Assembly (NCBI RefSeq): GCF_007859765.1
Contig: NZ_SIHJ01000001.1
Coordinates: 1,983,311 to 2,047,310, forward strand
Source: Posidoniimonas corsicana
Lineage (GTDB): Bacteria > Planctomycetota > Planctomycetia > Pirellulales > Lacipirellulaceae
Direction of reading: 5' to 3'
DNA: 64,000 nt
The position numbers and the translations under genes are program-made. Every line of letters begins with the position of its first letter. Positions within the stretch are counted from its first letter, which is position 1. A model generated the notes under the pieces. That model saw only the letters and a list, made by a program, of their open reading frames with translations. It made no database searches and was not told where the DNA came from. Below are positions 21,531-49,860 of the stretch, piece after piece.

Positions 21531-22043
21531 ACTTGCGGGAATCGACTAATTCTGTCCAGTATACACCAGGGTGTGAGTGGCATTTGAAAAGTGCAGCGCC
21601 CGGCGCCGAGTAGGTGCGGCGCTGGGTGGTTGCGGGGAGGCGACGACCTCGAGGTTTTGAGACAGCCCCCGACTAATCCAAATCTGTCTTGCTAGAACCT
21701 GTTTGATCGCATCGTACACCCTTCTAATTCTCTTCGCAATCACTCGCAAATCCTCGCGAGTTGAAGCAAGTACTCGCACGATTGCGAACGCAAAAAGGGT
21801 AGTAGAAAAACGACCACGTTTAGGCTGCTCTTGAGTATTGCTTTCAATCGCTTGATGCACTGTCAGACGCACGCAGCACACTGACGGTTAATCAGGAATT
21901 GACAAACAGCAAGCCCATCCGCGTTACATGAGAAGAACGTCTCGCGCAACGCATCGTAGGCAGCAAGCATAAGAAGGATTCTGATGCAAAGAAGAAGCAC
22001 CCCGCTAAGAACTAGCGAGGCGCAAAGAAGCAGCTACTTCCGA

Positions 22044-23600: not shown

Positions 23601-23768
23601 ATGAGCAAGCGCCGTCGTGGCTACCCGTCCGAGACGCAGGTCAAGATCGGCGTCAGGGTCGTTCACGGCGATAAGCTGATGGAAGAGAAGCTCGGCCGCA
23701 ACGACCTGTGCCCGTGTGGCAGCGGTACGCGGTTCAAGCGTTGCTGCCTGAAGCGGGGTCGGTTTTGA
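23601..23768 (+). CDS. Small SEC-C motif (SecA C-terminal-like metal-binding) protein, 55 aa.
   Basis: Translation ends ...[20 protein letters not shown], matching the SEC-C motif CPCGSG..(K/R)CC. Below the ORF-track size cutoff. Confidence 0.4.
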
Positions 23769-23807
23769 CGGGGTGAACCGGGACCACTACTTTTAGGGAA
23801 GCTTAGA

Positions 23808-25202: not shown

Positions 25203-25205
25203 GGC

Positions 25206-25523
25206 GTGCTGGAGCGGTCGCCGACCGTGCGCGGCAAGAGCCTCTGCCTGCGGCTGCTGTTCGAGATGGGGAAGTGGAAGAGCCTCCCGTGGCTGATCCG
25301 GGCCTTCAAGCTCGAAGACCCGTCCTTGCGCGAGCTGGCAGAGCAACTGGCGCTGACTTGGCTCAATAGCAATCGCGTTTTCACTAAGCCTTCCCGTTTA
25401 GAGCGTGAGGCGATCATCGACGCCTACGCAGCCGCTGAAGCAATCATGCCCAAAACCTTCGCCGAAGAGCTACAATCGAGGTTGTCGTTTCGCCTAACGG
25501 ACGGGCCAGAAGAGCCCAGCTAA
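25206..25523 (+). CDS. In-frame continuation of the HEAT-repeat ORF after a single TGA. Possible readthrough, pseudogene or separate small gene.
   Basis: Same reading frame as 23808-25202, separated by one TGA codon. Sequence continues with HEAT-like DPSLRELAEQLALTWL. Confidence 0.3.
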   Translation: MLERSPTVRGKSLCLRLLFEMGKWKSLPWLIRAFKLEDPSLRELAEQLALTWLNSNRVFTKPSRLEREAIIDAYAAAEAIMPKTFAEELQSRLSFRLTDGPEEPS

Positions 25524-25586
25524 CGGCTGCTGGGCAGCGAACTGGCTGAGAGCGCCCCCGGCCAGGGCAAAAGGAAACAAGACGCT

Positions 25587-26027
25587 ATGTCCGCAAGCGA
25601 CCTCACGCAGGAGTCAGGCCCCGACCTCGTCGAGCTGGCTCGCGCGATTGCTACTAGCGCCGACGAGGGTCAGTTCCGCCGAGACAGCGTTACGCCATAC
25701 ATCGAGCACCCCGCCGCGGTCGCGTCGCGTGCCCCCAAGTCGCCAGAATCCCAGGCTGCCGCGTGGCTGCACGACGTGCTGGAAGACACCGACCTCTCCG
25801 CCGCCGACCTGCTGGCGCAGGGGATCCCTGCTAGGGTCGTCGATGCTGTCGAAGCGCTCACCAAGCAAGAGGGCTTGTCGTACGAAGAGAACCTCGAACG
25901 GGTGGATGCGAACGAACTGGCCAAGGGCGTCAAGATCGCCGACATGCTGAGCAACCTCGCGGACAGCCCCACCAAGAGCCAGATTTGCAAGTACGCCCGC
26001 GGCCTGCTGAAGCTGCTGGTCGAATAG
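25587..26027 (+). CDS. HD-domain protein, RelA/SpoT-type small (p)ppGpp hydrolase-like.
   Basis: YIEHPAAVA...WLHDVLEDT matches the RelA/SpoT HD hydrolase signature (HPL.VA ... HDV.EDT). 146 aa single-domain protein. Confidence 0.6.
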   Translation: MSASDLTQESGPDLVELARAIATSADEGQFRRDSVTPYIEHPAAVASRAPKSPESQAAAWLHDVLEDTDLSAADLLAQGIPARVVDAVEALTKQEGLSYEENLERVDANELAKGVKIADMLSNLADSPTKSQICKYARGLLKLLVE

Positions 26028-26443
26028 ACCACGGCTGTGTCTCGCCCCGAACGCCTCAGCGTCCGTCCCTGAGAACTGGGCCGGCAGGAAATACCAGGTT
26101 TCTGGAAAAAGCGGGCGAACCTCTGGCTTGTTTCCGACATCTATAGTTACCGAACGCGACCCGCGGTGTTTAAAGCGGGTAGACTAGAACTGGAAGCACT
26201 TCTTCTCCGGAGACGGAATCATGTTACGGCTGAGTCTCATACGCTCATCGCTCCCGGCGAATACCGCCGGCTTGCCGTTTGCCTATAGGGCGAGCGATAA
26301 GCCCGGTTATGCGCCCGCCGGCGAACAATGGCGTTTATGACACTCGGCCAATCTCTTTGATGAGCCCGAGGCCCGGTGTCAGAGCGACATCGGGCTTTTT
26401 CTTTGGCTCCTGCCGATCGAAGAGGCCGACCCCACGACAACTT

Positions 26444-26515
26444 GGGCTGGTAGCTGAGACGGTATAGCGGCGGTCTGAAGAACCGCAGACGAGGATTCGA
26501 GCGTCTCCCGGCCCA
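26444..26515 (+). tRNA. tRNA-Phe (GAA).
   Basis: 7-bp acceptor gggctgg/ccggccc with one GU. Anticodon arm gcggt-CTGAAGA-accgc. T-loop TTCGAGC. Confidence 0.6.
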
Positions 26516-26553
26516 CTCTGCGCACCCGGTGCGCGCACAACGAGACACGACAC

Positions 26554-26625
26554 GCCCCGTTGGTCTAACGGCGAGGATAGCGGGCTTTCAATCCGCAGAT
26601 GAGGGTTCGATTCCCTCACGGGGTG
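26554..26625 (+). tRNA. tRNA-Glu (TTC).
   Basis: Acceptor gccccgt/acggggt. D-stem gtct/ggat. Anticodon loop CTTTCAA. T-arm gaggg-TTCGATT-ccctc. Confidence 0.65.
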
Positions 26626-26634
26626 CTGAGTAAT

Positions 26635-26725
26635 CAGAACGTAGCGAAGTTTGGCATCGCGCTTGGCTTGGGGCCAAGAGCCGCGTTGCCGAGGAGACAG
26701 AGCGGTTCGAGTCCGCCCGTTCTGA
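26635..26725 (+). tRNA. Aberrant 91-nt tRNA-Pro(TGG)-like gene with a 22-nt unpaired insertion in the variable region. Possible pseudogene.
   Basis: Perfect 7-bp acceptor cagaacg/cgttctg. D-arm gcga..tcgc. Anticodon arm cttgg-CTTGGGG-ccaag. The variable region agccgcgttgccgaggagacag does not fold into a hairpin. Confidence 0.35.
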
Positions 26726-26734
26726 CTGACAATT

Positions 26735-26807
26735 CGGGCGGAGGTGCAGATGAGAGCACGCCTGCTTTGGGAGCAGGAGGGTTTCGGTTCGACTCCGAGG
26801 CGCCCGA
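26735..26807 (+). tRNA. tRNA-Pro (TGG).
   Basis: Anticodon arm cctgc-TTTGGGA-gcagg. T-arm ttcgg-TTCGACT-ccgag. Acceptor pairs 6 of 7. Confidence 0.6.
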
Positions 26808-26814
26808 CTTACAC

Positions 26815-26886
26815 GGTAGTCGAGGGCTGGTTGCCCGAACCCGGCTGATAACCGGGTGGCGCTGAGTTCGATTCCCAGGGCTACCA
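26815..26886 (+). tRNA. tRNA-Ile (GAT).
   Basis: Acceptor ggtagtc/ggctacc. Anticodon arm cccgg-CTGATAA-ccggg. T-loop TTCGATT. Confidence 0.55.
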
Positions 26887-26968
26887 CTTACTTGGAACTT
26901 CGCGAACCACGAGGAGATACACAATGTCGATCGTCCTGCGATGCAAACGGATACGCCCAACCATCATT

Positions 26969-27040
26969 CGGGTTGTGGTGTAACGGCAGCATCCCTGGCT
27001 TATAACCAGGTGGGTGTGGGTTCGAATCCTACCGGCCCGA
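26969..27040 (+). tRNA. tRNA with anticodon TAT (Ile-AUA decoding type, unusual in bacteria).
   Basis: Acceptor cgggttg/cggcccg with GU pairs. Anticodon arm cctgg-CTTATAA-ccagg. T-arm gtggg-TTCGAAT-cctac. Confidence 0.5.
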
Positions 27041-27050
27041 CTCAAAGCAC

Positions 27051-27123
27051 TGGCGCGTAGCTCAGTGGTGAGAGCGACGACCTTATAAGTCGTGGGTCGG
27101 AGGTTCAATTCCTCCCGCGCCAA
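27051..27123 (+). tRNA. Second, distinct tRNA with anticodon TAT.
   Basis: Perfect acceptor tggcgcg/cgcgcca. Canonical D-arm gctc-agtggtga-gagc. Anticodon arm acgac-CTTATAA-gtcgt. T-loop TTCAATT. Confidence 0.6.
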
Positions 27124-27134
27124 TTGAACAACAT

Positions 27135-27207
27135 GGGACTGAGGTGTTAGCGGCAGCATCCCCGGCTCTTAACCGGCGGGGTGAGGGTTCGAGTCCCTCT
27201 GGTCCCA
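27135..27207 (+). tRNA. tRNA-Lys (CTT).
   Basis: Acceptor gggactg/tggtccc with GU pairs. Anticodon loop CTCTTAA. T-arm gaggg-TTCGAGT-ccctc. Confidence 0.6.
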
Positions 27208-27291
27208 CTGATTTTGATGGCGGATGGCAAGCATGAGTCGTGTCGCAGCATTGCTCGGCATGGAGAGCTCGTCATGCGTTCGACATGAAAG

Positions 27292-27363
27292 GCACTGGTC
27301 GTCTAGCGGCGAAGACTCCGCTCTCGTACAGCGGCGACGCCGGTTCGAGTCCGGCCCGGTGCT
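27292..27363 (+). tRNA. tRNA-Thr (CGT).
   Basis: Acceptor gcactgg/ccggtgc. Anticodon arm ccgct-CTCGTAC-agcgg. T-arm gccgg-TTCGAGT-ccggc. Confidence 0.65.
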
Positions 27364-27398
27364 CTGATGTTCTTTGACAACTTACTTTCCATTGCTTT

Positions 27399-27469
27399 GC
27401 GCCCATGATGTAGTGGCAGCCTTCCTGCTTGCCATGCAGGGTGTGTCGGTTCGATTCCGGCTGGGCGCA
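27399..27469 (+). tRNA. tRNA-Gly (GCC).
   Basis: Perfect acceptor gcgccca/tgggcgc. Anticodon arm cctgc-TTGCCAT-gcagg. T-loop TTCGATT. Confidence 0.65.
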
Positions 27470-27477
27470 TTGAGTTT

Positions 27478-27567
27478 CAGGGCGTGGGAAAGCCTGGCCA
27501 GTGTCTCTGGAGACGGGGCGCGTACCTCGGGCGCACGAGATCGCTGGTTCAAATCCAGCCGTCCTGA
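27478..27567 (+). tRNA. Atypical 90-nt tRNA-like gene with a potential 8-bp acceptor stem. Anticodon arm not resolvable by eye. Not selenocysteine, as there is no UCA loop.
   Basis: T-arm gctgg-TTCAAAT-ccagc. Acceptor cagggcg/cgtcctg, extendable to 8 bp with t/a. The internal region contains hairpins gtct-ctgg-agac and gcgc..gcgc but no clean 5-7-5 anticodon arm. Confidence 0.3.
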
Positions 27568-27576
27568 CTCACTTGA

Positions 27577-27648
27577 TCCGGTGTAGCCAAACGGTAAGGC
27601 GGCGGCCTGTTAAGTCGACGAGTGGAGGTTCGATTCCTCCCACCGGAG
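27577..27648 (+). tRNA. tRNA-Asn (GTT).
   Basis: Perfect acceptor tccggtg/caccgga. Anticodon loop CTGTTAA. T-arm ggagg-TTCGATT-cctcc. Confidence 0.65.
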
Positions 27649-27656
27649 CTACAGAT

Positions 27657-27744
27657 GGAAGGGCAAGCCAACGGGCGATGGCAGCTGCCTCGAAAGCAGT
27701 CGAGCGCCGAGCGCGCCTTGTGAGTTCGACTCTCACTCCTTCCG
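27657..27744 (+). tRNA. tRNA-Ser (CGA), class II with long variable arm.
   Basis: Acceptor ggaaggg/tccttcc. Anticodon arm gctgc-CTCGAAA-gcagt. Variable-arm hairpin gcgc-cga-gcgc. T-loop TTCGACT. Confidence 0.6.
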
Positions 27745-27750
27745 CTTCAC

Positions 27751-27822
27751 GTGTCCTTGGCCGAGCGGCAGAGGCTCCGGGCTTCCAACCCGGCCAGGCG
27801 GGTTCGACTCCCGCAGGGCACA
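27751..27822 (+). tRNA. tRNA-Gly (TCC).
   Basis: Perfect acceptor gtgtcct/agggcac with one GU. Anticodon arm ccggg-CTTCCAA-cccgg. T-arm gcggg-TTCGACT-cccgc. Confidence 0.6.
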
Positions 27823-27842
27823 CTTTCGATGCAAGCAATTTT

Positions 27843-27917
27843 TCCGGCGTCGTCGCTGTTGGTAGTGATGCCTGGCTTTGAACCAGGAGTCCGTAGGTTC
27901 GATTCCTACCCCCGGAA
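27843..27917 (+). tRNA. tRNA-Gln (TTG).
   Basis: U1-A72. Anticodon arm cctgg-CTTTGAA-ccagg. T-arm gtagg-TTCGATT-cctac. One C-C mismatch in the acceptor. Confidence 0.55.
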
Positions 27918-27933
27918 CTAACGAGACAACCTC

Positions 27934-28004
27934 TGCGGGGTCGTCTAAAGGCAGGACGGGGCGCTCTGAACGCCTTGGTGTTGGTTCGATTCCAGCCCCC
28001 GCAG
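27934..28004 (+). tRNA. tRNA-Gln (CTG).
   Basis: Perfect acceptor tgcgggg/ccccgca. Anticodon loop CTCTGAA. T-loop TTCGATT. Confidence 0.6.
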
Positions 28005-28009
28005 CTTAC

Positions 28010-28094
28010 GGAAGCCATCCGGCTGGATGAGGACGCTGTCTTGAAAACAGTTGGTCGCACCGGCGACTTGGGGGTTCGAGTCCCTCGGCTTCCG
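28010..28094 (+). tRNA. tRNA-Ser (TGA), class II.
   Basis: Perfect acceptor ggaagcc/ggcttcc. Anticodon arm gctgt-CTTGAAA-acagt. Variable-arm hairpin gtcgc-accg-gcgac. T-loop TTCGAGT. Confidence 0.65.
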
Positions 28095-28107
28095 CTCAAC
28101 TCAACAC

Positions 28108-28180
28108 GGTCCTGTGGCCTAGCGGCAAAGGCAGCTTCCTTACAAGAAGATGATCGGTGGTTCGAGTCCACCCAGGACTA
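28108..28180 (+). tRNA. tRNA-Val (TAC).
   Basis: Acceptor ggtcctg/caggact. Anticodon loop CTTACAA. T-arm ggtgg-TTCGAGT-ccacc. Confidence 0.6.
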
Positions 28181-28222
28181 CTCGTTACGTTTTTAAACGC
28201 ACTTGGGAACAAGGAGGCTCAG

Positions 28223-28492
28223 ATGAGCAAAAGCGTCCGCTACCGACAATGCACGATGCGTCGTCCCATAAGCAGGGGCTCGGTCGTTACGACCTCCTAC
28301 ATCCCTCACCAGTACGCGAAGCTTGGCAGAGTGCTCAAGCTGAAAGACGCCGACGATTCGTGGGTCGATGGTTGGGTCGTCGAGAAAGTTGGCGACGCCG
28401 TTATCGAAGCCAGCGAACTGCCTGACTACCGCAAGGCTATCAAAAACCACCGCAAGTCGACCGGCGACAGCACTCGTCGCAGTAAGAACTGA
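28223..28492 (+). CDS. Small hypothetical protein (89 aa) embedded inside the tRNA array.
   Basis: ATG at 28223 preceded by an AGGAGG RBS. ORF MSKSVRYRQCTMRRPISRG... followed by a hairpin ccgggg-aacgct-ccccgg. No recognisable domain. Confidence 0.45.
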   Translation: MSKSVRYRQCTMRRPISRGSVVTTSYIPHQYAKLGRVLKLKDADDSWVDGWVVEKVGDAVIEASELPDYRKAIKNHRKSTGDSTRRSKN

Positions 28493-28509
28493 CGAACGAC
28501 TCTGTGCTG

Positions 28510-28527
28510 CCGGGGAACGCTCCCCGG
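28510..28527 (+). terminator. Hairpin (terminator-like, no U-tract) after the embedded small ORF.
   Basis: Inverted repeat ccgggg/ccccgg with a 6-nt loop immediately after the stop at 28490-28492. Confidence 0.3.
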
Positions 28528-28545
28528 CGCGCAGAGCAGCTGACA

Positions 28546-28618
28546 TGCCCAGATACGCCAACGGCGAGCGGCCTGGCTTAGGATCAGGTGTTTGCAGGTT
28601 CGACTCCTGCCCGGCGCA
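28546..28618 (+). tRNA. tRNA-like gene with a Leu(TAG)-type anticodon loop but class-I length. Its 5' acceptor strand could not be paired. Possible pseudogene.
   Basis: T-arm gcagg-TTCGACT-cctgc. Anticodon-like arm cctgg-CTTAGGA-tcagg. No 7-mer upstream complements the 3' strand ccggcgc. Confidence 0.25.
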
Positions 28619-28630
28619 CTGAGACAACAT

Positions 28631-28701
28631 GGCCCGCTCTTTTAATGGCAGGATGCGAGACCCTCATTCTCGTGACGCGGGTTCGACTCCCGCACGGGCT
28701 A
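28631..28701 (+). tRNA. Atypical tRNA, anticodon CTC (Glu-like), with C at position 33 and a weak D-stem.
   Basis: Acceptor ggcccgc/acgggct (6 of 7). Anticodon arm cgaga-CCCTCAT-tctcg. T-arm gcggg-TTCGACT-cccgc. Confidence 0.4.
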
Positions 28702-28708
28702 CTGATAT

Positions 28709-28808
28709 GGCCAAGTGGTGGAATAGGTAGACACGCGACACTCAGAATGTCGTGCCACTCGTGGCGTGGGAGTTCGCGCCGTCTACCGAAGAAAGGGCCC
28801 CTTGGCTA
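28709..28808 (+). tRNA. tRNA-Leu(CAG)-like, aberrant (about 100 nt), with a degenerate T-arm and a 17-nt insertion before the 3' acceptor. Likely pseudogene.
   Basis: Leu-type D-arm ggtggaataggtagacacg. Anticodon arm cgaca-CTCAGAA-tgtcg. Variable hairpin gcca-ctcg-tggc. T-loop-like TTCGCGC lacks A58. Acceptor ggccaag/cttggct pairs only across the long span. Confidence 0.3.
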
Positions 28809-28816
28809 CTGACTGA

Positions 28817-28884
28817 TGCGGGTGAGCCAGGCTCAGCCGGGCCTCATAAGCCTGGACCGTCGGGTGCGACTCCCGGACCCGCTA
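28817..28884 (+). tRNA. Short (68 nt) tRNA with anticodon CAT (Met/initiator-like). U1-U72 mismatch and a reduced D-arm.
   Basis: Anticodon arm cgggc-CTCATAA-gcctg. T-arm tcggg-TGCGACT-cccgg. Acceptor pairs 6 of 7 with an unpaired 1-72. Confidence 0.35.
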
Positions 28885-28893
28885 CTTACCGAT

Positions 28894-28969
28894 GACTGGG
28901 TACGCAAATCGGCAAAGCGACCAGGTCGAGAGCCTGGTGATTTTGTGGGTTCGACTCCCACCCTGGTCA
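28894..28969 (+). tRNA. Atypical tRNA, anticodon loop UCGAGAG (GAG, C33), with a 7-nt variable loop and a 3-bp D-stem with large loop.
   Basis: Perfect acceptor gactggg/cctggtc with GU pairs. Anticodon arm ccagg-TCGAGAG-cctgg. T-arm gtggg-TTCGACT-cccac. Confidence 0.4.
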
Positions 28970-28975
28970 CTCAAT

Positions 28976-29048
28976 GATCCCGTGGTCCAACGGCTACGAC
29001 GCCTGGATGACACCCGGGAGAGTGATGGTTCGACTCCATACGGGATCA
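28976..29048 (+). tRNA. tRNA-Val (GAC).
   Basis: Perfect acceptor gatcccg/cgggatc. Anticodon arm cctgg-ATGACAC-ccggg. T-loop TTCGACT. Confidence 0.55.
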
Positions 29049-29052
29049 CTTT

Positions 29053-29123
29053 GGTCTGTAAGTGTTTCGGCCGCACGCGTCCGTGGTAAGGACGAGGGCC
29101 GGGTTCAATTCCCGGACGGACCT
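29053..29123 (+). tRNA. tRNA-Thr (GGT).
   Basis: Acceptor ggtctgt/acggacc. D-stem gtg/cac. Anticodon arm cgtcc-GTGGTAA-ggacg. T-arm ccggg-TTCAATT-cccgg. Confidence 0.6.
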
Positions 29124-29133
29124 CTTGAAAGAT

Positions 29134-29206
29134 GGGCTGGCATGTTCCAAGGGGGCGACTGACTCTTGCAAAGTCGGTGCGAAGGGTTCGATTCCCTTCC
29201 GGTCCA
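29134..29206 (+). tRNA. tRNA-Ala (TGC).
   Basis: Acceptor gggctgg/ccggtcc with the G3-U70 Ala identity pair. Anticodon arm tgact-CTTGCAA-agtcg. T-arm aaggg-TTCGATT-ccctt. Confidence 0.65.
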
Positions 29207-29216
29207 CTCACAACGA

Positions 29217-29287
29217 GGGCTCATGGTCCAACGGGACGACACCGGCTCGGCAGGCCGGGAATCTGGGTTCGATTCCCAGTGGGTCCA
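29217..29287 (+). tRNA. tRNA-Ala (GGC) with an atypical anticodon loop (C33).
   Basis: Acceptor gggctca/tgggtcc with G3-U70. D-stem gtc/gac. Anticodon arm ccggc-TCGGCAG-gccgg. T-arm ctggg-TTCGATT-cccag. Confidence 0.5.
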
Positions 29288-29298
29288 CTGACAATTTC

Positions 29299-29386
29299 GG
29301 AAGGTAGCCGGATACGGCTCGCCGGGCCGCACTGCTAATGCGGAGCCGCTTCGCGCGGCATGTGGGTTCGAATCCCACGCCTTCCG
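29299..29386 (+). tRNA. tRNA-Ser (GCT), class II.
   Basis: Acceptor ggaaggt/gccttcc. Anticodon arm ccgca-CTGCTAA-tgcgg. Variable hairpin gccgc-ttcgc-gcggc. T-arm gtggg-TTCGAAT-cccac. Confidence 0.65.
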
Positions 29387-29408
29387 CTCACATTGGCGAA
29401 TGAGGTTT

Positions 29409-29481
29409 GGCTCGATGGTGAAACGGACAATCATCCCTCGGTTCTAACGAGCGGTTCCAGATTCGAATCCTGGTCGAGCTG
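29409..29481 (+). tRNA. tRNA-Arg (TCT) with an unusual 9-nt T-loop (ATTCGAATC).
   Basis: Perfect acceptor ggctcga/tcgagct with one GU. Anticodon loop GTTCTAA. T-stem ccag/ctgg with an enlarged loop. Confidence 0.45.
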
Positions 29482-29492
29482 CTGAAGAAAAC

Positions 29493-29577
29493 GGAAGGGC
29501 AACCCGATTGGCGACGGGACCCGGTTGGAAGCCGGCTGAGCTTCATAGCCTTGAGGGTTCGACTCCCTCTCCTTCCG
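29493..29577 (+). tRNA. tRNA-Ser (GGA), class II.
   Basis: Acceptor ggaaggg/tctccttcc-type pairing. Anticodon arm ccgg-TTGGAAG-ccgg. Variable hairpin gct-tcat-agc. T-arm gaggg-TTCGACT-ccctc. Confidence 0.55.
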
Positions 29578-29612
29578 CTGCAACGATTCCACTGAAGAAA
29601 GGGAGACTAAAG

Positions 29613-30290
29613 ATGACCAACGATACCCTACAAGCATTCGAAGCACTTGGCGCCGAAGCTGCGATTGAGACGCGCGGAAATCGATTCGAAATCGACGTAC
29701 GTGAGATCTCTGGTGCAGAGGGATTCGCTCTGACTTACCCATGGTCGGACGTGATCACAACGGAAGTGATGGACATCAAGCCGCGGTTGCGTCACCTCGT
29801 GCTCGACGTGACGGGCTGGCGACTCCCGATCAGCGGACGCTACCTATGCGGCCACGATGAGCAGCACTGGTTCGTGGCTTCCTTGCCGTTTAATCGGCGG
29901 ACAGCGACGGTTCGTGGCGCAATGGAGGCCCTCAAGCCGGATATTGTGCGGCGTGAACAGCGACGCAAGGGTGTGAAGCACCGCCGCCACCGTCGGCGAA
30001 CCGCTGCGTACGTCCGGCAGGGCGAGTGGTTCTTCCTGCCGCGACCGAGCATGCACGTCGGTGACCTCGCAGAACGAAACGGACAGTTGGTGCGAGAGGG
30101 TGGCAAGCCCCACCGCGTCGAGTGGGTCTATCGCCCTGCAGGGCGCGACGAGACTTTCGTTCGCGGTGCGGTCTCACACCCGGACCACGAGACGATCCGT
30201 CTGCAAGCTTGGCACCGAGTCGTGCTGAACAACGAATCGACGCCAAGCGCTGAAGCTCAGCCATTCACCCGGATGGCTTACCTAGATTGA
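29613..30290 (+). CDS. Hypothetical protein (225 aa) embedded inside the tRNA array.
   Basis: ATG at 29613 preceded by a GGGAGA RBS. ORF MTNDTLQAFEALGAEAAIETRGNRFEID... No recognisable domain. Basic-rich central segment KHRRHRRR. Confidence 0.45.
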   Translation: MTNDTLQAFEALGAEAAIETRGNRFEIDVREISGAEGFALTYPWSDVITTEVMDIKPRLRHLVLDVTGWRLPISGRYLCGHDEQHWFVASLPFNRRTATVRGAMEALKPDIVRREQRRKGVKHRRHRRRTAAYVRQGEWFFLPRPSMHVGDLAERNGQLVREGGKPHRVEWVYRPAGRDETFVRGAVSHPDHETIRLQAWHRVVLNNESTPSAEAQPFTRMAYLD

Positions 30291-30324
30291 CCGTTGGGCC
30301 GTCGGCGACGGCGGTCCAACTTAT

Positions 30325-30398
30325 GGTGTCTGTGGTGTACACGGTACGCACGCCTGCCTGTGAAGCAGGAGGTACGGGTTCGATTCCCGTCGGATACC
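30325..30398 (+). tRNA. tRNA-His (GTG) with encoded G-1.
   Basis: Acceptor gtgtctg/cggatac. Extra 5' G opposite the C73 discriminator. Anticodon arm cctgc-CTGTGAA-gcagg. T-arm acggg-TTCGATT-cccgt. Confidence 0.65.
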
Positions 30399-30404
30399 CT
30401 CCAC

Positions 30405-30474
30405 GCGAGTGTGCTCCTGGGAGAGTAGTCAGCCTCCAAAACTGACGGACAGGGTTCGAATCCTTGCGCTCGTG
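30405..30474 (+). tRNA. Atypical tRNA-Trp(CCA)-like with an expanded 9-nt anticodon loop CCUCCAAAA and a 3-nt variable loop.
   Basis: Acceptor gcgagtg/cgctcgt with GU pairs. Anticodon stem gtcag/ctgac. T-arm caggg-TTCGAAT-ccttg. Confidence 0.35.
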
Positions 30475-30475
30475 C

Positions 30476-30545
30476 TTTGCCGAGGTGGCGGACCGCACGG
30501 GGCCCTCCTAAGGCCCAAGTCCTGGTTCGATTCCAGGTCGAGATG
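30476..30545 (+). tRNA. tRNA-Arg(CCT)-like. 5' half resembles Leu/Ser (gccgaggtggcgg) and the acceptor strands do not pair. Possible pseudogene or chimera.
   Basis: Anticodon arm gggcc-CTCCTAA-ggccc. T-arm cctgg-TTCGATT-ccagg. No complementary 5'/3' acceptor 7-mers found. Confidence 0.25.
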
Positions 30546-30553
30546 CTGACCAT

Positions 30554-30625
30554 GCCGTGTGGGTGTGCTGGATAGCATCGCAGTCTTCGAAACTGCGGGA
30601 CGGGGTTCGATTCCCTGACACGGTG
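30554..30625 (+). tRNA. tRNA-Arg (TCG).
   Basis: Perfect acceptor gccgtgt/acacggt. Anticodon arm gcagt-CTTCGAA-actgc. T-arm cgggg-TTCGATT-ccctg. Confidence 0.65.
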
Positions 30626-30630
30626 CTTGC

Positions 30631-30702
30631 AGCCTGTGAGTGTGTTGGATTGCACGCGACCCCGCGAAGGTCGTAGGCCAGGTTCGATTCCTGGGCGGGT
30701 TA
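30631..30702 (+). tRNA. Atypical tRNA-Arg-like with anticodon loop CCGCGAA (GCG, C33).
   Basis: Perfect acceptor agcctgt/gcgggtt with GU pairs. Anticodon arm cgacc-CCGCGAA-ggtcg. T-arm ccagg-TTCGATT-cctgg. Confidence 0.45.
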
Positions 30703-30726
30703 CTGCTGCTTCAATATGAAGACAAC

Positions 30727-30797
30727 GACGCTGGAGCCAGATGGCCAGGCAGCCGGTTGCAACCCGGTCAAAGTGGGTTCGACTCCCACCGGCGTCT
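30727..30797 (+). tRNA. tRNA-Cys (GCA).
   Basis: Perfect acceptor gacgctg/cggcgtc. Anticodon arm gccgg-TTGCAAC-ccggt. T-arm gtggg-TTCGACT-cccac. U73 discriminator as expected for Cys. Confidence 0.65.
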
Positions 30798-30907
30798 CTT
30801 TGTAAGCGAGGTTTGTCGTCGCTGGGCCAGCGGCGCCCTGCGCCCCGTTCAGACGGTTGGCTCAGTGTGTTCCGTGCATGGATTACTCGAAAGCGACACG
30901 TACCACC

Positions 30908-30981
30908 ATTAGGTTAGCTCAGTCAGGCAGAGCACCAGGCTGTTAACCTGGGAGTCACGGGTTCGAATCCCGTACCGCTAA
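30908..30981 (+). tRNA. Second tRNA-Asn(GTT)-like with imperfect acceptor pairing.
   Basis: Canonical D-arm tagctcagtcaggcagagc. Anticodon arm ccagg-CTGTTAA-cctgg. T-arm acggg-TTCGAAT-cccgt. Acceptor pairs only with a 2-nt bulge. Confidence 0.4.
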
Positions 30982-31448
30982 AAGCGCGGTGGCGTGAAAA
31001 CGCCTCACTAGAAGCCCGAGGGTGGCGGACGGCCGCTTGGTCGGCTGCGCGTTGCGGACTCACTCATGACAGGACTTCGGTCTTGTCAAAGTGTCGAGGC
31101 AGCGTAGCAGCAACGCGACTCGTCGCCTTGCAGCACGCAGATACCGCTTTCACGCGGCGCGGCATGCCAAGGGAAGAACAAGCCGATGGTCGCTCGCACG
31201 GACAGGTTCCGTGCAAGTCACCGCGGCGGACGCTCCCCAAAGCCGCCACGCTAACGACCGCTCAAGCGTGCTCCGCGTAGCGAACGCGTGACCAAGGGGA
31301 TCGTTTCGCCGCCCAAGGGTTTACTTTTACCAATCCATGAACCAATCGTTATCAATAGGCGTCTTCCACTTGCTGTACACGCTGTTAAAAAGCACGGGGC
31401 GGGTGGCCGGCCGCAACCACTTCTGGCCATAGAAAGGAGGCCTCCGAG

Positions 31449-32552
31449 ATGTTCTACAAGCGAATCAAGATCCGAAGCTACGAGGTAGGCCTCTACTTCC
31501 GTGACGGTGAGTTCAAGGGCCTGTTGACCGAAGGTCGGCACTGGCTAATGGGACCGTCCTGGAAGGTCCAGGTTGACGTCGTGTCACGCCGCGACCCGTG
31601 GCTGCAGCACGATGAACTCGACGCGATCGTTAAGAGCGGCGCGCTGACCGACGAGGCGGTTGTCGTTGACCTGAAGGACAACGACCGCGGTCTGGTCTGG
31701 ATCGAGGGCCGTTTCAGTCACATCCTGCCGCCGGGCCTGTACGCGTACTGGACTGGTCAGAAGGGCGTGCGTGTCGAAGTCGTCGACGCCAGTGAGGTCC
31801 GCTTCAAGCACGCCGAGCTGAAGCGCATCCTTGGCAGCCCGTACGCCGGTCAGGTGCTCGACATCTGCACGGTCGAGCGTAGCGCGGTCGGTGTTGTGTT
31901 CTACGACGGCGAGTACGTCGAGACGCTGCCGCCCGGTCAGTACGCGTACTGGCGCCGCACGGCCGATGCGAAGGTGGTTGAGGTCGACCTCCGCGAGCAG
32001 ACCTTGGACGTGGCGGGTCAGGAAATCATGACTGCCGACAAGGTCACGCTGCGGATGAACGCGGTCGTCACGTACCGCGTCGTCGACGCCCGCCAGGCGG
32101 TCACCGTGGCCGACGGCGCGAAGCAGTCGCTGTACCGCGAGGCGCAGCTGGCTCTGCGTGCGGTCGTCGCGACGCGCGACCTCGACGCGTTCCTGACGGA
32201 CAAGGACGCCGTCACGGACGAGTTCGCCGAGTCGGTCCGTCGCCGTTCGGGTGAGTTGGGTCTGGAGGTTGTTTCGGTAGGCGTCAGGGACGTCATCCTG
32301 CCGGGCGACATGAAGGACCTGCTCAACAAGGTCACGGAGGCCAAGAAGGCCGCCGAGGCGAACCTGATCTCGCGACGCGAGGAGACGGCCGCCATGCGGT
32401 CGCAGGCCAACACGGCCCGCCTGCTCGCCGACAACCCGACGCTGATGCGTCTCCGGGAACTGGAGGTCCTGGAGAAGGTCGCCACGGCCGGTGACCTGAA
32501 GGTTGTCCTCGGTGAGAAGGGACTCGCGGACCGCGTGGTCAACCTGCTGTAG
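31449..32552 (+). CDS. SPFH/band-7 (stomatin/prohibitin/slipin-like) domain protein.
   Basis: AGGAGG RBS. C-terminal half matches the band-7 signature (TADKVTLRMNAVVTYRVVDA ... RDVILPGDMKDLLNKVTEAKKAAEANLI ... coiled-coil tail). The N-terminal ~190 aa is an extra beta-rich region. Confidence 0.7.
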   Translation: MFYKRIKIRSYEVGLYFRDGEFKGLLTEGRHWLMGPSWKVQVDVVSRRDPWLQHDELDAIVKSGALTDEAVVVDLKDNDRGLVWIEGRFSHILPPGLYAYWTGQKGVRVEVVDASEVRFKHAELKRILGSPYAGQVLDICTVERSAVGVVFYDGEYVETLPPGQYAYWRRTADAKVVEVDLREQTLDVAGQEIMTADKVTLRMNAVVTYRVVDARQAVTVADGAKQSLYREAQLALRAVVATRDLDAFLTDKDAVTDEFAESVRRRSGELGLEVVSVGVRDVILPGDMKDLLNKVTEAKKAAEANLISRREETAAMRSQANTARLLADNPTLMRLRELEVLEKVATAGDLKVVLGEKGLADRVVNLL

Positions 32553-32559
32553 TGAACGA

Positions 32560-32589
32560 CCGGAGCCTGGGCGAAATCTCGGGCTCCGG
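32560..32589 (+). terminator. Candidate rho-independent terminator after the SPFH gene.
   Basis: 8-bp inverted repeat ccggagcc ... ggctccgg followed by the T-rich ttcaattctc. Confidence 0.35.
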
Positions 32590-32648
32590 TTCAATTCTCA
32601 CTGCCAGATAGTAGCTGAGCGAAGCGCCGGAATGTGAGTGTCAATGCG

Positions 32649-33353: not shown

Positions 33354-33369
33354 AGTCTTCTGAGGATTC

Positions 33370-34990
33370 AGCCCCGACGACCTCGAGGTTATGAGACTAT
33401 TTCTAACCGACCGCGGAACTGCCCATTTCTCGGTAAAACCAGGGGAAAACCTGCTCTCGCATCAAGTGAGAGTCTATCAAACCCTATCAAGGATTGTCAG
33501 GTATTTCGGTACAGGCGGCCTTAAAACGGTACAAGCGGTACGCGGAGTCAGACCCAAGCTTGGTTACTCCGGCCGTTGCGATTTCTTTGAAAGCCATACC
33601 TGGAATGATGCTTGAGGCCAGCGTCATTGCTGCGAGAATCAAGCGACATCAGGGGTTCGGAAAGATTGTCAGCCCTGTTTCCCGGAGAAAAACGCCAGGA
33701 CGGTTGCTTGATGAAGGGTTGGTTTACCCCGCTGTTGTTCCTGTTGGCGCGTTCAAAGGAAGACCAACTCAGGCGGCAGATCCTATTCTTGAAAGCGGAG
33801 CTTGAGATGACTCGGGCGCGCGTCCCCCAAAGCCGGATCTTCCTCTCGAATGAGGAGAGAGAGCGGCTGTTGGAGCTGGGCGACGGCATCGGCTCGGACG
33901 TGCTGAAGCTGGTTTCGATTGTGCACCCCCGAACGTACCAGCGCTGGCGTGAGCGGAAAAGCCAAGGGCAGCCTCCCGCCAAGAAGATGGGCCGCAAGGG
34001 CACTCCAGAGAGCCTGCGGCAGATCGTTGTTCGACTTGCCACCCAAGCTGGCTGGGGCTACGGTCGGATTGTTGGCGAGCTCAAAAAGCTTCGCATCCAG
34101 TGCGTTGGTCGCACGACGGTCCGGACGATCCTCAAGGAAGAGGGCGTCTTGCCCAGCCCGAAGCGGGGCAGGGGGACGTGGGACGAGTTCATCAAGATCC
34201 ACGCTCACACGCTTTGGCAGTGCGACTTCTTCTCGAAGATGGTCCTGGCGAAGACCGGGTTAACGCAGGCCTACGCGCTGGTGTTTTTGCACGTCAAATC
34301 GAGGCGAGTCATCTGCTCGCCCGCCACTTTCAAGGCGGACGACCAATGGATGGTCCAGCAGGCCGAATCGATGCTGGAGCAAGCCAAGGGAATGGAGTTG
34401 CCCGTTGCCTACCTCGTGCGTGATCAGGACTTCAAGTACAGCAAGCGGTTCGACCGAGTCTTCTCAGACGCAGGCGTTGCCGTTGAGCCAACCGCTCCTC
34501 GGGCTCCGAATCAAAATGCATTCGTGGAGCGTTGGATCCAGAGCGTGAAGTATGAATGCCTGAATCGCTTCATCGCCTGCGGCTTCAATCACCTTGATTA
34601 CTTGGTTTCTGAATTCGTGGACTATTATCACGAACTACGCCCTCATCAGCGCAAGGACAACAAGCCGCTTCTTGGGGTCTGGTCGGATACGGATGACCCT
34701 CCGAGCAGCGGAGACGAAGTGGTCTGCCGAGAGCGGCTCGGCGGGGTCTTGAAGTGCTACGAAAGGAAAGCCGTCTGACGAAGCTGCTGAGGCAACTCGA
34801 CTAGCCGGGCGCGAGAATTCGCGACCCGACTCCATGCGCCGTTGATAGATCGGAGCGATTCGTGACAATTGACGTCACGCCAAGAGCCGTTCAACGCAGC
34901 TCCCGACCCTGAATCAACGGGCTGGCTCGTTGGACAACCTTCTTGAACACGACGCACCCCGCTGACCAGCTCCCGCCAATCGAGGCACGC
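33370..34990 (+). mobile_element. IS481-family insertion sequence, copy A (boundaries approximate).
   Basis: Flanking non-coding segments (~33370-33611 and ~34779-34990) are homologous to those around the second copy at 48233-49860, including a shared ...acaacctt(c/g)ttgaacacgacgc right-end segment. Confidence 0.55.
33612..34778 (+). CDS. IS481-family transposase (HTH + rve/DDE integrase core).
   Basis: WQCDFF..., VRDQDFKYSKRFD and FVERWIQSVKYECL motifs of the rve DDE catalytic core. About 85-90% identical to the ORF at 48482-49648. Alternative start at MKGWF (33711). Confidence 0.75.
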   Translation: MRPASLLRESSDIRGSERLSALFPGEKRQDGCLMKGWFTPLLFLLARSKEDQLRRQILFLKAELEMTRARVPQSRIFLSNEERERLLELGDGIGSDVLKLVSIVHPRTYQRWRERKSQGQPPAKKMGRKGTPESLRQIVVRLATQAGWGYGRIVGELKKLRIQCVGRTTVRTILKEEGVLPSPKRGRGTWDEFIKIHAHTLWQCDFFSKMVLAKTGLTQAYALVFLHVKSRRVICSPATFKADDQWMVQQAESMLEQAKGMELPVAYLVRDQDFKYSKRFDRVFSDAGVAVEPTAPRAPNQNAFVERWIQSVKYECLNRFIACGFNHLDYLVSEFVDYYHELRPHQRKDNKPLLGVWSDTDDPPSSGDEVVCRERLGGVLKCYERKAV

Positions 34991-36569: not shown

Positions 36570-36571
36570 AA

Positions 36572-48125: not shown

Positions 48126-48232
48126 AAGAGGTACTTTTACCTCTTTTGGGCCCTAGCAAGCCGCTCGGCCTCACAAGTGGCCGGTAACCTAAAGCACGGT
48201 TTCAGCAGGACTTAGAAAAAGTGGCGGGGGCC

Positions 48233-49860
48233 GGATTCGAACCGACGACCTCGAGGTTATGAGGCGATTTCTAACCAGCCTTGGAACTGCTCATTTCTCG
48301 GCAAAACCAGGGGGAAACCTGCTATCGCAGACAAGTGAGAGTCTATCAAACCGTATCAAGGATTGTCAGGTATTTCGGTACAGTCGGCCTAAATCCGGTA
48401 CAAACGGTACGCGGAGTCAGGCCCCAAGCATGGCTATTCCGGCCGTTGCGAATTCTTTGAAAGCCATACCGGGAATGATGCTTGAAGCCAGCGTCATTGC
48501 TGAGAGAATCAACCGACACCAGGGGCTCAGAAAGATTGTCACCCCAGTTTCCCGGAGAATCTCGCCAGGGCGGTTGCTTGATGAAGGGTTGGTTTACCCC
48601 GCTGATGTTTCTGCTGGCGCGTTCAAGAGAAGACCAGCTCAGGCGGCAGATCCTGTTCTTGAAGGCCGAGCTCGAGATGACCCGAGTTCGGGTGCCCCAA
48701 AGCCGGATCTTCCTTTCGAACGAGGAACGCGAACGACTGCTGGAACTGGGTGATGGCATCGGGTCGGACGTGCTGAAGCTGGTTTCAATCGTGCATCCCC
48801 GAACGTACCAGCGTTGGCGTGAGCGGAAAAGCCAAGGGCAGCCTCCCGCCAAGAAGATGGGGCGGAAAGGCACGCCGGAGACTCTACGTCAGATTGTGAT
48901 TCGACTGGCGAAACAAACGGGCTGGGGCTACGGCCGGATTGTGGGCGAGCTCAAAAAGCTCCGGATCCAGTGCGTTGGACGCACCACGGTGCGGACAATT
49001 CTCAAAGAAGAGGGCGTATCGCCGAGCCCGAAGCGGGGCAGGGGGACTTGGGACGAGTTCATCAAGATCCACGCTGACACGCTTTGGCAGTGTGATTTCT
49101 TCTCGAAGATGGTCGTGACGAAGACCGGTTTGCGGCAGGCCTACGTGCTGGCGTTCCTGCACGTCAACTCGCGGCGGGTGATCTGCTCGCCGGCGACGCT
49201 CACGCCGGACGACGGTTGGGTTACTGTTCAGGCCGAGTCAATGCTGCAGCAGGCTCGGTCGATGGAGTTGCCCGTTCGTTACGTGGTCCGCGACCTCGAC
49301 TTCAAGTACTCCAAGCGGTTCGACCAGACCTTCGCCGAAGCAGGTGTATCCGTCGAGCCGACAGCGCCGCGGGCGCCGAACCAGAACGCCTTTGTTGAGC
49401 GCTGGATCGGCTCGATCCGAGGTGAGTGCCTCAACCGGTTCATCGCCTTCGGCCTCGGCCACCTCGATCACCTCGTTGAGTCGTACCTGGATTACTACCA
49501 CGCGTCTCGCCCTCACCAGCGGAAGGAGAACAAGCCGTTACTCGGCGTCTGGCCCGAGGTCGATGACCCGCCAGCTGACGGGGAGGAAGTCGTTTGCCGA
49601 GAGTGGCTCGGCGGGGCGCTAAAGCACTACGAACGCAAAGCCGCCTGATGCGAAGCGGGACAATCGCTCGCCTCGGATCCGTAACCGATTCTCCAGCCCT
49701 GCCCCATCGGCCGTACGACCGCGATTCTTGACAATCCGACCAGCGAAAGTTTGCGGAGTGACCGGCGTCTAAACCTTTCATCAACGGAGGTTCTTCAGCG
49801 GACAACCTTGTTGAACACGACGCTTGAACACAACGGACGGCTCTAGACTGACGCGGCGGC
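48233..49860 (+). mobile_element. IS481-family insertion sequence, copy B (boundaries approximate). Direct repeat of copy A.
   Basis: Flanks and transposase ORF are homologous to 33370-34990, in the same orientation. Confidence 0.55.
48482..49648 (+). CDS. IS481-family transposase, copy B.
   Basis: 388 aa, collinear with the 33612-34778 ORF and sharing its motifs. Alternative start at MKGWF. Confidence 0.75.
   Translation: MKPASLLRESTDTRGSERLSPQFPGESRQGGCLMKGWFTPLMFLLARSREDQLRRQILFLKAELEMTRVRVPQSRIFLSNEERERLLELGDGIGSDVLKLVSIVHPRTYQRWRERKSQGQPPAKKMGRKGTPETLRQIVIRLAKQTGWGYGRIVGELKKLRIQCVGRTTVRTILKEEGVSPSPKRGRGTWDEFIKIHADTLWQCDFFSKMVVTKTGLRQAYVLAFLHVNSRRVICSPATLTPDDGWVTVQAESMLQQARSMELPVRYVVRDLDFKYSKRFDQTFAEAGVSVEPTAPRAPNQNAFVERWIGSIRGECLNRFIAFGLGHLDHLVESYLDYYHASRPHQRKENKPLLGVWPEVDDPPADGEEVVCREWLGGALKHYERKAA

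Follow-up and report, generated by a model that had tools for sequence, protein, structure and literature searches.

The 64-kb window analysed here, a stretch of 64,000 nucleotides of the Posidoniimonas corsicana KOR34 chromosome (contig NZ_SIHJ01000001.1, positions 1,983,311 to 2,047,310 of the forward strand), contains a dense array of tRNA genes at window positions 26444-30798. This array is probably a horizontally acquired, supernumerary and partly decayed L-array or planctomycete degenerate tRNA gene cluster that resides in a low-G+C island of the chromosome. As such, it is an already-described kind of element, reported as degenerate cluster in 2016 and as L-array in 2021. The most interesting content of the array is a protein of 225 amino acids (aa) that is encoded between the tRNA genes and is 100% identical to KOR34_15600, and the role of this protein is the more interesting question. 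We propose that the array is one copy of a conserved mobile module, in which tRNA genes of fixed order are combined with the 225-aa protein, usually with an HNH gene, here also with an 89-aa protein, and with a tRNA-like element and an SPFH gene. This module occupies different chromosomal sites in many Planctomycetia, also beside integrases.

The tRNA gene array and its sister copies

ARAGORN with default settings called 33 tRNA genes, all on the plus strand within 26444-30798 (7.6 genes per kb over 4.36 kb), and none in the remainder of the 64-kb window. The RF00005 gathering score was passed by 24 of these 33 genes, and Rfam added 28631-28701 as well as an acceptor-less tRNA-like element at 30912-30976. 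Relaxed ARAGORN settings contributed Glu(CUC) at 28631 and a Met-like(CAU) member at 28814; an extra relaxed call within the 225-aa open reading frame (ORF) was false and was discarded. Once the Leu(CAG) pseudogene at 28709-28813 is included, the tRNA and tRNA-like elements total 37, in agreement with the roughly 37 T-arm signatures that an initial annotation of this DNA had counted, and the 33 default calls bear out its description of a dense array as opposed to a mere handful of genes. Across the window, there are 33 copies of the T-arm motif GGTTCRANTCC, 31 of them in the array, at an expectation from shuffled sequences of 0.34 per window. The following features make up the array region.

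26368..26398, plus strand: hairpin resembling a terminator, with a T run after it, 45 nt ahead of the first tRNA
26444..30798, plus strand: tRNA gene array of 33 genes by default ARAGORN and about 36 with weak members, on one strand with a median spacer of ~9 nt
28223..28492, plus strand: 89-aa ORF with an AAGGAGG ribosome-binding site, 80% aa identity in the sister array and a weak phage match (phrog_25356, 2.3e-5)
29613..30290, plus strand: 225-aa protein KOR34_15600 with an AGGGAG ribosome-binding site, in syntenic arrays always placed between the Ser/Arg block and tRNA-His
30912..30976, plus strand: tRNA-like element, conserved, in which the D, anticodon (GUU) and T arms are canonical and the acceptor stem has only 3 bp (53.2 bits, model positions 5-66)
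31449..32552, plus strand: 367-aa SPFH/Band-7 protein, 98% identical to the sister copy and 67-71% identical to proteins downstream of four other arrays, also found at verrucomicrobial loci

The spacers, initially given as 5-20 nt, indeed have a median of ~9 nt, except for three long gaps of 364 and 747 nt (the two ORFs inside the array, with the 225-aa ORF in the longest) and 191 nt (two weak members inside). Both embedded ORFs are real, being conserved and each preceded by an AGGAG-type ribosome-binding site that is seen in the sequence. The array is non-periodic, as Tandem Repeats Finder gave nothing in 26300-31100. Neither an Asp nor a Tyr tRNA is present in it, and its tRNA genes lack an encoded CCA. 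In Rfam, the members score between 19.6 and 74.4 bits (median about 45-47 bits), compared with 67-74 bits for isolated planctomycete type-I tRNAs (n=3).

We judged supernumerary status from published tRNA counts per genome. The published KOR34 genome (6.77 Mb, 66.7% G+C) has 91 tRNA genes, and Lacipirellulaceae otherwise have 47-78, with 54 for strain Pla123a in a table that also lists KOR34. Because KOR34 exceeds its relatives to this extent, the array accounts for the excess and is supernumerary. The G+C content of the region is 53-63% and that of the array about 0.60, against the genome mean of 66.7%.

Because the 225-aa protein offered a handle on related loci, we searched it against one genome per species and obtained 345 relatives. 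Loci with closer relatives (mostly at least 46% identity) hold arrays of the same gene order, namely Phe-Glu-Pro-Pro-Ile-Lys-Ile(UAU)-Lys-Thr-Gly ... Ser(GCU)-Arg(UCU)-[Ser]-ORF225-His-[HNH]-Trp-Thr-Arg x4-Cys. This order recurs in at least 10 other loci of Pirellulales and Planctomycetales in differing flanking contexts, and it persists across arrays whose 225-aa proteins share only 46-60% identity. Arrays of up to 39 genes were present in metagenome-assembled genomes (MAGs) of Pirellulales, Planctomycetaceae, Planctomycetales and Lacipirellulaceae. An HNH endonuclease ORF lies between His and Trp in 11 sister arrays, and there is no HNH gene in the window. An SPFH/Band-7 gene lies downstream of the array in five loci, and the remaining flanks vary by locus.

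The closest copy, on a metagenomic contig (locus L082), has 41 tRNA genes, a 225-aa protein that is 90% identical, the 89-aa ORF, and DNA that is 85-90% identical to window positions 26130-32551. Downstream of its array follow the SPFH gene, two RepB/ParB genes, an excisionase-like HTH_17 gene and a tyrosine integrase gene abutting tRNA-Pro(GGG); the homology of the window to this locus ends at the end of the SPFH gene. At another locus (L083), two tyrosine integrase genes lie upstream of the array. The same array was thus found in related genomes, as syntenic copies at different Planctomycetia sites. The initial view of a mobile supernumerary array that is not a housekeeping operon is supported by the tRNA gene counts, the low G+C content, the differing contexts of the sister arrays, the integrases and the relatives on viral contigs described below.

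Planctomycete degenerate tRNA gene clusters have been described as low-scoring, attributed to horizontal transfer and carrying a single canonical tRNA-Ile(UAU) (Kim et al. 2016, PMC4807772). The window array likewise is dense, low-scoring and partly degraded, with the canonical tRNA-Ile(UAU) at 27051-27123. The clusters of that study comprised 2-28 genes with weak synteny, whereas the family of the window array reaches 41 called genes in a fixed order across orders of Planctomycetia. A term search of the text and supplements of PMC4807772 gave no match for "HNH" and no passage on an embedded protein; therefore, the embedded 225-aa protein, the HNH and SPFH genes, the tRNA-like element and the conservation of C33 (see below) appear to be undescribed in that study.

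A tRNA array unit has been defined by a minimum of 20 tRNA genes and a minimum density of 2 per kb, exemplified by the array of an integrative conjugative element of Acidithiobacillus ferrooxidans (Tran et al. 2016, PMC4758250), and 33 genes at 7.6 per kb fall well within this definition. Planctomycetes are among the array-bearing phyla listed in PMC4758250 and PMC8421152. L-arrays are supernumerary, horizontally transferred and linked to homing endonucleases; they are mostly poorly transcribed, with the Anabaena PCC 7120 trn operon being inducible by translational stress (PMC8421152). The window array shares with L-arrays the same orientation of its genes, spacing that permits co-transcription, length, non-periodicity, supernumerary status and location on mobile DNA. 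L-arrays are long and rarely periodic and so have not grown by tandem accretion (Santamaria-Gomez et al. 2021, PMC8421152). A homing endonuclease is frequent and not obligatory in L-arrays; unlike typical ones, the window copy has lost the HNH gene that 11 of its sisters carry, as well as several tRNAs. Of the site-specific integrase that characterizes an integrative element, the window gave no match to those of L082 or L083 and contains only rve-type DDE genes.

Jumbo-phage tRNA clusters occur with an RtcB ligase, Ro60/TROVE, HNH endonucleases and NAD-related enzymes (Viruses 2021, PMC7824862). The neighbourhoods of the 225-aa family resemble these clusters in having RtcB, Ro60/TROVE, HNH and NAD-related genes, and variant anticodon loops are shared with the phage tRNAs of eLife 2023 (PMC10264068). 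The window differs from the jumbo-phage clusters in being bacterial chromosome without phage structural genes, RtcB or Ro60. A likeness to the Rsr-YrlA-RtcB RNA-repair operons (RNA 2014, PMC4201824) exists through distant 225-aa relatives at three loci (L017, L026 and L073) and not through the window locus itself. Neither the 225-aa family nor the fixed 41-gene order nor the conserved C33 was found described in the literature compared, the main RNA-repair survey lying outside this comparison.

Damaged and conserved members of the array

The initial annotation described many members as aberrant. We used the intact 41-gene sister array L082 as the reference for decay and aligned it with the window array gene by gene. 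The members concerned are listed below; identities refer to the sister array, and ortholog counts to calls across 13 syntenic arrays.

26635..26726, plus strand: tRNA-Pro(GGG) ortholog in which G34 is changed to T and the variable region carries a 17-nt insertion; probable pseudogene
26969..27041, plus strand: positional ortholog of tRNA-Lys(UUU), anticodon now UAU; 54/73 identical, with compensatory stem changes
27051..27123, plus strand: canonical tRNA-Ile(UAU), highest-scoring member (74.4 bits); identical at 71/74 positions, one pair having changed in a compensatory way
27478..27568, plus strand: tRNA-Pro(CGG) ortholog with a 16-nt D-arm insertion (19.6 bits); pseudogene, miscalled Leu(GAG) by ARAGORN
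28546..28617, plus strand: chimera of the 5' part of tRNA-Leu(UAA), anticodon now UAG, fused in the T arm to the 3' end of tRNA-Tyr
28631..28702, plus strand: tRNA-Glu(CUC) with C33, which is present in 6/8 orthologs
28709..28813, plus strand: tRNA-Leu(CAG) ortholog with a 16-nt T-loop insertion (20 bits); pseudogene
28814..28885, plus strand: Met-like (CAU) member, weak, whose T loop has 8 nt and whose acceptor contains mismatches; other arrays have Met(CAU) there
28894..28970, plus strand: tRNA-Leu(GAG) with C33; sister copy identical, C33 in 9/10 true orthologs, anticodon stems covary
29130..29207, plus strand: tRNA-Ala(UGC)-like, 39/72 identical, with poor acceptor and D stems, sub-threshold in Rfam; degenerate
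29217..29288, plus strand: tRNA-Ala(GGC) with C33, which is present in 5/6 orthologs; compensatory anticodon-stem change relative to the sister
29409..29482, plus strand: tRNA-Arg(UCU) in which G53A opens the last T-stem pair; specific to the window
30405..30475, plus strand: tRNA-Trp(CCA) that has a C31.A39 mismatch, giving a 9-nt loop when left unpaired (30.8 bits); 4 arrays share the mismatch
30477..30546, plus strand: chimera in which the first 10 nt come from tRNA-Thr(UGU) and everything from the D loop on from tRNA-Arg(CCU), acceptor unpaired (22.6 bits); pseudogene
30631..30703, plus strand: tRNA-Arg(GCG) with C32 and C33; the sister has G32 and U33, and C33 occurs in only 3/10 orthologs

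The comparison showed that most of the aberrations are recent and specific to the window, whereas C33 in Leu-GAG, Ala-GGC and Glu-CUC and the C31.A39 mismatch of tRNA-Trp are conserved. Insertions of 16-17 nt disrupt three genes (26635, 27478 and 28709), two of which had been recognized initially; the third segment then suspected, at the member now placed at 30477, turned out to be a chimera. T-arm-to-T-arm recombination cost the window array six genes: the deletion that produced the chimera at 28546-28617, whose acceptor stem is mismatched, took Leu(UAG), Asp and Leu(CAA) together with the larger part of Tyr. Arg(CCG) was also lost relative to L082. Of the two tRNAs said to have a UAU anticodon, both do, and the one at 26969 is an ortholog of Lys(UUU) instead of a second tRNA-Ile. 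The tRNA-Ile(UAU) ortholog is also the best-scoring member of L082 (76.4 bits). The enlarged anticodon loop of tRNA-Trp was seen again and can alternatively be read as the C31.A39 mismatch, and the presumed 9-nt T loop at 29409 reflects a T stem opened by the single G53A change. In total, nine members are damaged or altered. About 28 genes still appear intact, and these cover 17-18 amino acids.

In the 24 ortholog pairs of the same length, 465 stem pairs were unchanged relative to L082, and the changed ones comprised 16 that differ on both sides and are still paired, 17 that differ on one side and are still paired, and 3 that are broken. Because two-sided compensated changes outnumber broken pairs 16 to 3, selection has acted on tRNA structure since the split from the sister copy, and the trend was the same against five more distant arrays. 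The two ORFs have open frames, with 45 synonymous versus 22 non-synonymous and 23 versus 18 codon differences from the sister. The array genes were thus under selection for tRNA structure until recently and are now eroding. The intact sister copy thereby reveals the route by which such arrays decay, i.e., recombination between conserved T arms and short insertions, and allows decay to be separated from conserved oddities.

All four instances of C33 reported initially (28631, 28894, 29217 and 30631) were verified. U33 is known to be nearly universal in cellular elongator tRNAs. In the 13 syntenic arrays, C33 was found in 59 of 395 tRNAs, concentrated in Leu-GAG (9/11 calls including the miscalled pseudogene at 27478, or 9/10 true orthologs), Ala-GGC (5/6) and Glu-CUC (6/8), and the anticodon stems covary across the arrays that share it in these isoacceptors. 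In Arg(GCG), C33 is sporadic (3/10) and new in the window. Phage tRNAs have been proposed to carry anticodon-loop changes that block cleavage by VapC- and MazF-type enzymes (eLife 2023, PMC10264068), and the conserved C33 is compatible with resistance to anticodon nucleases. Its conservation in particular isoacceptors makes nuclease escape by mobile tRNAs directly testable.

We also examined the 3' trailer of the tRNA genes. C74-U75 directly follows the discriminator in 82-94% of array tRNAs (394 tRNAs of the 13 syntenic arrays). It was likewise present in 6 of ten non-array tRNA genes (from L003, L011, L026, L042, L047, L055, L065, L069, L081 and L082), including 5/5 clearly isolated planctomycete ones, none with an encoded CCA. 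An array-specific processing signal was therefore rejected, and C74-U75 without CCA looks like a 3'-processing signature of the whole phylum. A "tmRNA" called by ARAGORN at one array locus (L001, 5483-5855) was an artefact spanning several array tRNA genes.

The embedded 225-aa protein and its relatives

The 225-aa protein had no match among Pfam, NCBIfam or PHROG families, and its profile matched no PDB sequence (best E-value 1.5). The structural model is confident (predicted local distance difference test score, pLDDT, of 82), yet neither the PDB nor a set of viral models contained a structural neighbour for it. No fusions were present in the best 150 representatives of the family, the longest of which has 359 aa. 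The family is abundant, with at least 1,842 clusters at 50% identity for E <= 0.001 and 945 for E <= 1e-10. Twelve residues are invariant or nearly invariant in 53 diverse members (H81, D82, E83, R135, Q136, E138, K165, H167, H189, D191, H192 and H201), and the conserved residues, mostly polar, lie around a disordered basic loop. Judged from the sequences, this pattern would be typical of a metal-dependent enzyme acting on nucleic acid.

To describe the neighbourhoods of the family, we used genome loci and viral contigs; relatives are encoded on 114 viral contigs, of which 80 were retained for the counts. At least three tRNA genes lie within 5 kb of the relative in 24/80 genome loci and 36/80 viral-contig loci. 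The commonest neighbours were HNH endonucleases (29 loci), Ro60/TROVE-vWA (12), SPFH (10) and the RtcB ligase (9), and on viral contigs NAPRTase, NADAR and ARPP domains also recurred. The PHROG scan of ten neighbouring ORFs on IMG/VR contigs returned methyltransferases, endonucleases and radical-SAM enzymes and no structural genes. A homolog of the 89-aa protein lies 0.9 kb from a 225-aa relative on a 340-kb viral contig (L093).

Four loci have an operon-like arrangement of Ro60, YrlA, in part a tRNA, RtcB and the 225-aa homolog (L017 86-4689, L026 1131-6783, L073 2725-6783 and L081 9818-17552), with three of them (L017, L026 and L073) in Planctomycetota and Phycisphaerales MAGs. In L017 and L026, the homolog (about 36% identity) lies directly downstream of Ro60-YrlA-RtcB. 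YrlA scored above the Rfam gathering score in L017, L026 and L073, with 83.6, 69.4 and 70.4 bits, respectively. In enterobacterial rtc operons, the slot downstream of rtcB is that of RtcA. L081 has a 74%-identical copy with Ro60, an extra EF-Tu, RbfA and RtcB; in the sister array L029, Ro60 occupies the slot normally held by SPFH; and in L084 the family copy stands alone, with no called tRNA-related neighbours.

Tentatively, the 225-aa protein might found an undescribed family of RNA-end or tRNA-processing metalloenzymes, and together with nuclease-resistant C33 tRNAs the array might serve as a portable "replace-and-repair" kit for tRNA damage; we put this forward as speculation. The same speculative reading holds that, across several bacterial phyla and on giant viral contigs, this undescribed family may travel together with mobile tRNA arrays, HNH endonucleases and Rsr-YrlA-RtcB operons. 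An abundant, unannotated family with enzyme-like conservation is a candidate for a missing activity in bacterial or phage RNA repair.

Relatives of the 225-aa protein are also embedded in unrelated arrays of other gene order, in Verrucomicrobiota (L040, L051, L056, L059 and L063), Phycisphaerales (L062) and Rhodothermia (L074), and in viral contigs of 100-500 kb (L103-L143) with up to 45 tRNA genes in 20 kb. The share of tRNAs with C33 in these unrelated arrays and viral contigs is 9-15% (15% in other array loci, 9% in viral loci).

Function, rival explanations and neighbouring elements

Because the hairpin at 26368-26398 appears to mark the end of an upstream unit, the array promoter should fall in about 26400-26443. 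The lack of an encoded CCA and the ~9-nt packing on one strand suggest that the tRNAs are most likely made as a polycistronic precursor, matured by host RNase P, 3' processing and CCA addition. We infer that the array could provide a reserve tRNA pool when the normal pool is damaged or under translational stress, and it might also be a constitutive supply of tRNA-Ile(UAU) for AUA codons. Because the accessory proteins have relatives in tRNA-rich large viral contigs, phage ancestry is likely. The theme of an RNA-damage response fits three observations: C33 is conserved in some isoacceptors, a RelA/SpoT-type HD hydrolase is encoded upstream, and members of the 225-aa family are associated with RtcB, Ro60 and YrlA.

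Alternatively, the array could be a functionally dead relic, i.e., decaying cargo that is neutral or slightly deleterious, of which at most tRNA-Ile(UAU) is used and whose oddities are meaningless. The nine damaged or altered members, the loss of six genes and of the HNH gene, and the median of about 45-47 bits compared with 67-74 bits for the few isolated planctomycete type-I tRNAs all point in this direction, as does the published view that such clusters are degraded and dispensable save for tRNA-Ile(UAU) (PMC4807772) and that L-arrays are usually poorly transcribed (PMC8421152). A dead relic would, however, hardly be expected to show 16 two-sided compensatory stem changes versus 3 broken pairs since its split from a sister of 85-90% identity, two open reading frames with more synonymous than non-synonymous differences, an SPFH protein 98% identical to the sister copy, a gene order preserved across arrays whose 225-aa proteins are 46-60% identical, or C33 conserved in specific isoacceptors with covarying stems, and we consider this explanation rather unlikely. 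The conserved anticodon loops could also mean that the array is a nuclease-evasion set, in which C33 and altered 31-39 and 32-38 positions escape anticodon nucleases and thereby protect the translation of the element or its host from toxins, immunity systems or competitors. In favour of this are the concentration of C33 (59/395 tRNAs) in Leu-GAG, Ala-GGC and Glu-CUC, its frequency of 15% in other array loci and 9% in viral loci, the precedent proposed for phage tRNAs (PMC10264068), and the company of RtcB, Ro60 and the HD hydrolase, which fits an RNA-damage response. However, a nuclease that targets these isoacceptors is not known in the host, 85% of the members have the usual U33 loop, C33 could instead mean relaxed constraint or activity that is tuned down, and the C33 baseline for housekeeping planctomycete tRNAs consists of three isolated genes inspected by eye; we therefore regard nuclease evasion as a doubtful possibility.

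A housekeeping tRNA operon, which the initial annotation had named beforehand as the competing case, would explain the near-complete amino-acid coverage, the single strand and the C74-U75 trailer shared with isolated planctomycete tRNA genes. It is contradicted by the 91 tRNA genes of KOR34 versus 47-78 in relatives and the G+C content of 53-63%, and also by the lack of an Asp, a Tyr or a good Met tRNA, the pseudogenes and chimeras, and the patchy distribution and integrase linkage, which together make it extremely improbable. That the array belongs to an intact or recently inactivated prophage is very unlikely as well: the phage-family matches of the HD protein and the 89-aa ORF and the 225-aa relatives on viral contigs would fit, but there is no capsid, terminase, tail or lysis gene among the ORFs scanned with Pfam and PHROG from 18 to 39 kb, and the sister element has RepB/ParB and integrase genes instead of phage structural genes.

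Several observations weigh against the favoured explanation of an acquired mobile array that still serves its host. Nine members are damaged or altered, and because Asp and Tyr are gone and Met is doubtful, the array alone cannot sustain translation. Published L-arrays are mostly poorly transcribed (PMC8421152), and no sigma-70-like promoter was found in 25400-32700, although planctomycete promoters may depart from that consensus. AUA accounts for 0-25% of the Ile codons in the genes examined, where counts are small, and is rare across all window genes. The integrase remnant of the initial annotation was not found: with the sister elements' integrase, RepB, HTH_17 and DUF4440 proteins as queries, tblastn returned no match in the window. 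Likewise, no Ro60, YrlA or RtcB is present in the window, no relatives of the 225-aa protein were detectable in cultured phages or plasmids, and the annotated stretches of the putatively viral IMG/VR contigs contained no capsid or terminase gene. The 5' half of tRNA-Met was not found in the window, and the island boundaries proposed below rest on a 22-mer without an intact target there.

The elements beside the array comprise the following.

21640..21661, minus strand: 22-mer derived from an initiator-type tRNA-Met (its 3' half), degenerate by 2 mismatches; candidate left island boundary
25587..26027, plus strand: HD-domain protein of 146 aa, of the RelA/SpoT hydrolase type and similar to small alarmone hydrolases, encoded immediately upstream of the array
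33374..33395, minus strand: the 22-mer without mismatches, with an rve-type DDE gene (33612-34778) after it; candidate right island boundary
48200..48263, minus strand: initiator-type tRNA-Met gene of which the 3' half is present, from the anticodon loop to the acceptor end; it includes the 22-mer (48242) and is followed by a second rve-type gene (48482-49648)

The 22-mer spans the anticodon loop to the T stem. Its three copies share one orientation and mark off two segments, 21662-33373 with the array in it and 33396-48241; from 49843 onward, core planctomycete genes continue. From the sequence, these repeats look like tandem islands at one tRNA-fMet attachment site. Because the 22-mer is absent from the other array loci, integration sites differ between them.

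The HD protein matched Pfam HD_4 (3.7e-7), PHROG 990 (2.7e-39) and, partially, NCBIfam spoT_relA. Its homologs (32-39% identity) occur within 10 kb of 225-aa relatives in five viral loci. It is not found upstream of other bacterial arrays and recurs only in these five viral loci, so that we rejected it as a conserved part of the module; whether the protein belongs to the array module is uncertain, and we only infer that it may.

The tRNA-like element sits between tRNA-Cys and the SPFH gene. Copies were found in the window (30866-30976), L082 (5288-5358), L001 (8308-8375), L007 (8040-8111), L014 (7273-7335) and L040 (7852-7910), located just upstream of SPFH in planctomycete and verrucomicrobial loci and with a variable "anticodon". 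The consensus fold of six sequences is a cloverleaf with a 3-bp acceptor stem, and in planctomycete loci the element is preceded by the conserved box TGTGTTCCGnnCATGGGTTCTGAC. Its identification as a Y RNA was unsupported: YrlA gave only noise-level matches elsewhere in the array, and there is no flanking Ro-binding helix.

The insertion sequence and toxin context noted initially was confirmed by Pfam, which identified two rve-type DDE genes, an IS1-like gene, HigB and XRE/M78. The units at 33374-34800 and 48242-49700 are 88-92% identical and encode a 388-aa rve/rve_3 DDE protein. Both begin exactly at the tRNA-Met-derived 22-mer, which is 100% conserved despite diverged flanks; it would be out of the ordinary for a DDE element to carry or target a piece of a tRNA. 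Flanked by an rve element and the IS1-like gene, 36572-38044 (minus strand) encodes an XRE helix-turn-helix/M78 (ImmA-like) protein beside a HigB-like toxin, which are likely a toxin-antitoxin or regulatory pair of the neighbouring island. Farther from the array, an ORF of more than 6,073 aa (8-18229) runs off the window start and has a G+C content below the genome mean, and a 2,380-aa ORF of genome-typical G+C content (39152-46294) contains internal 300-nt direct repeats spaced 627-651 nt (41225-42175 and 43875-44801).

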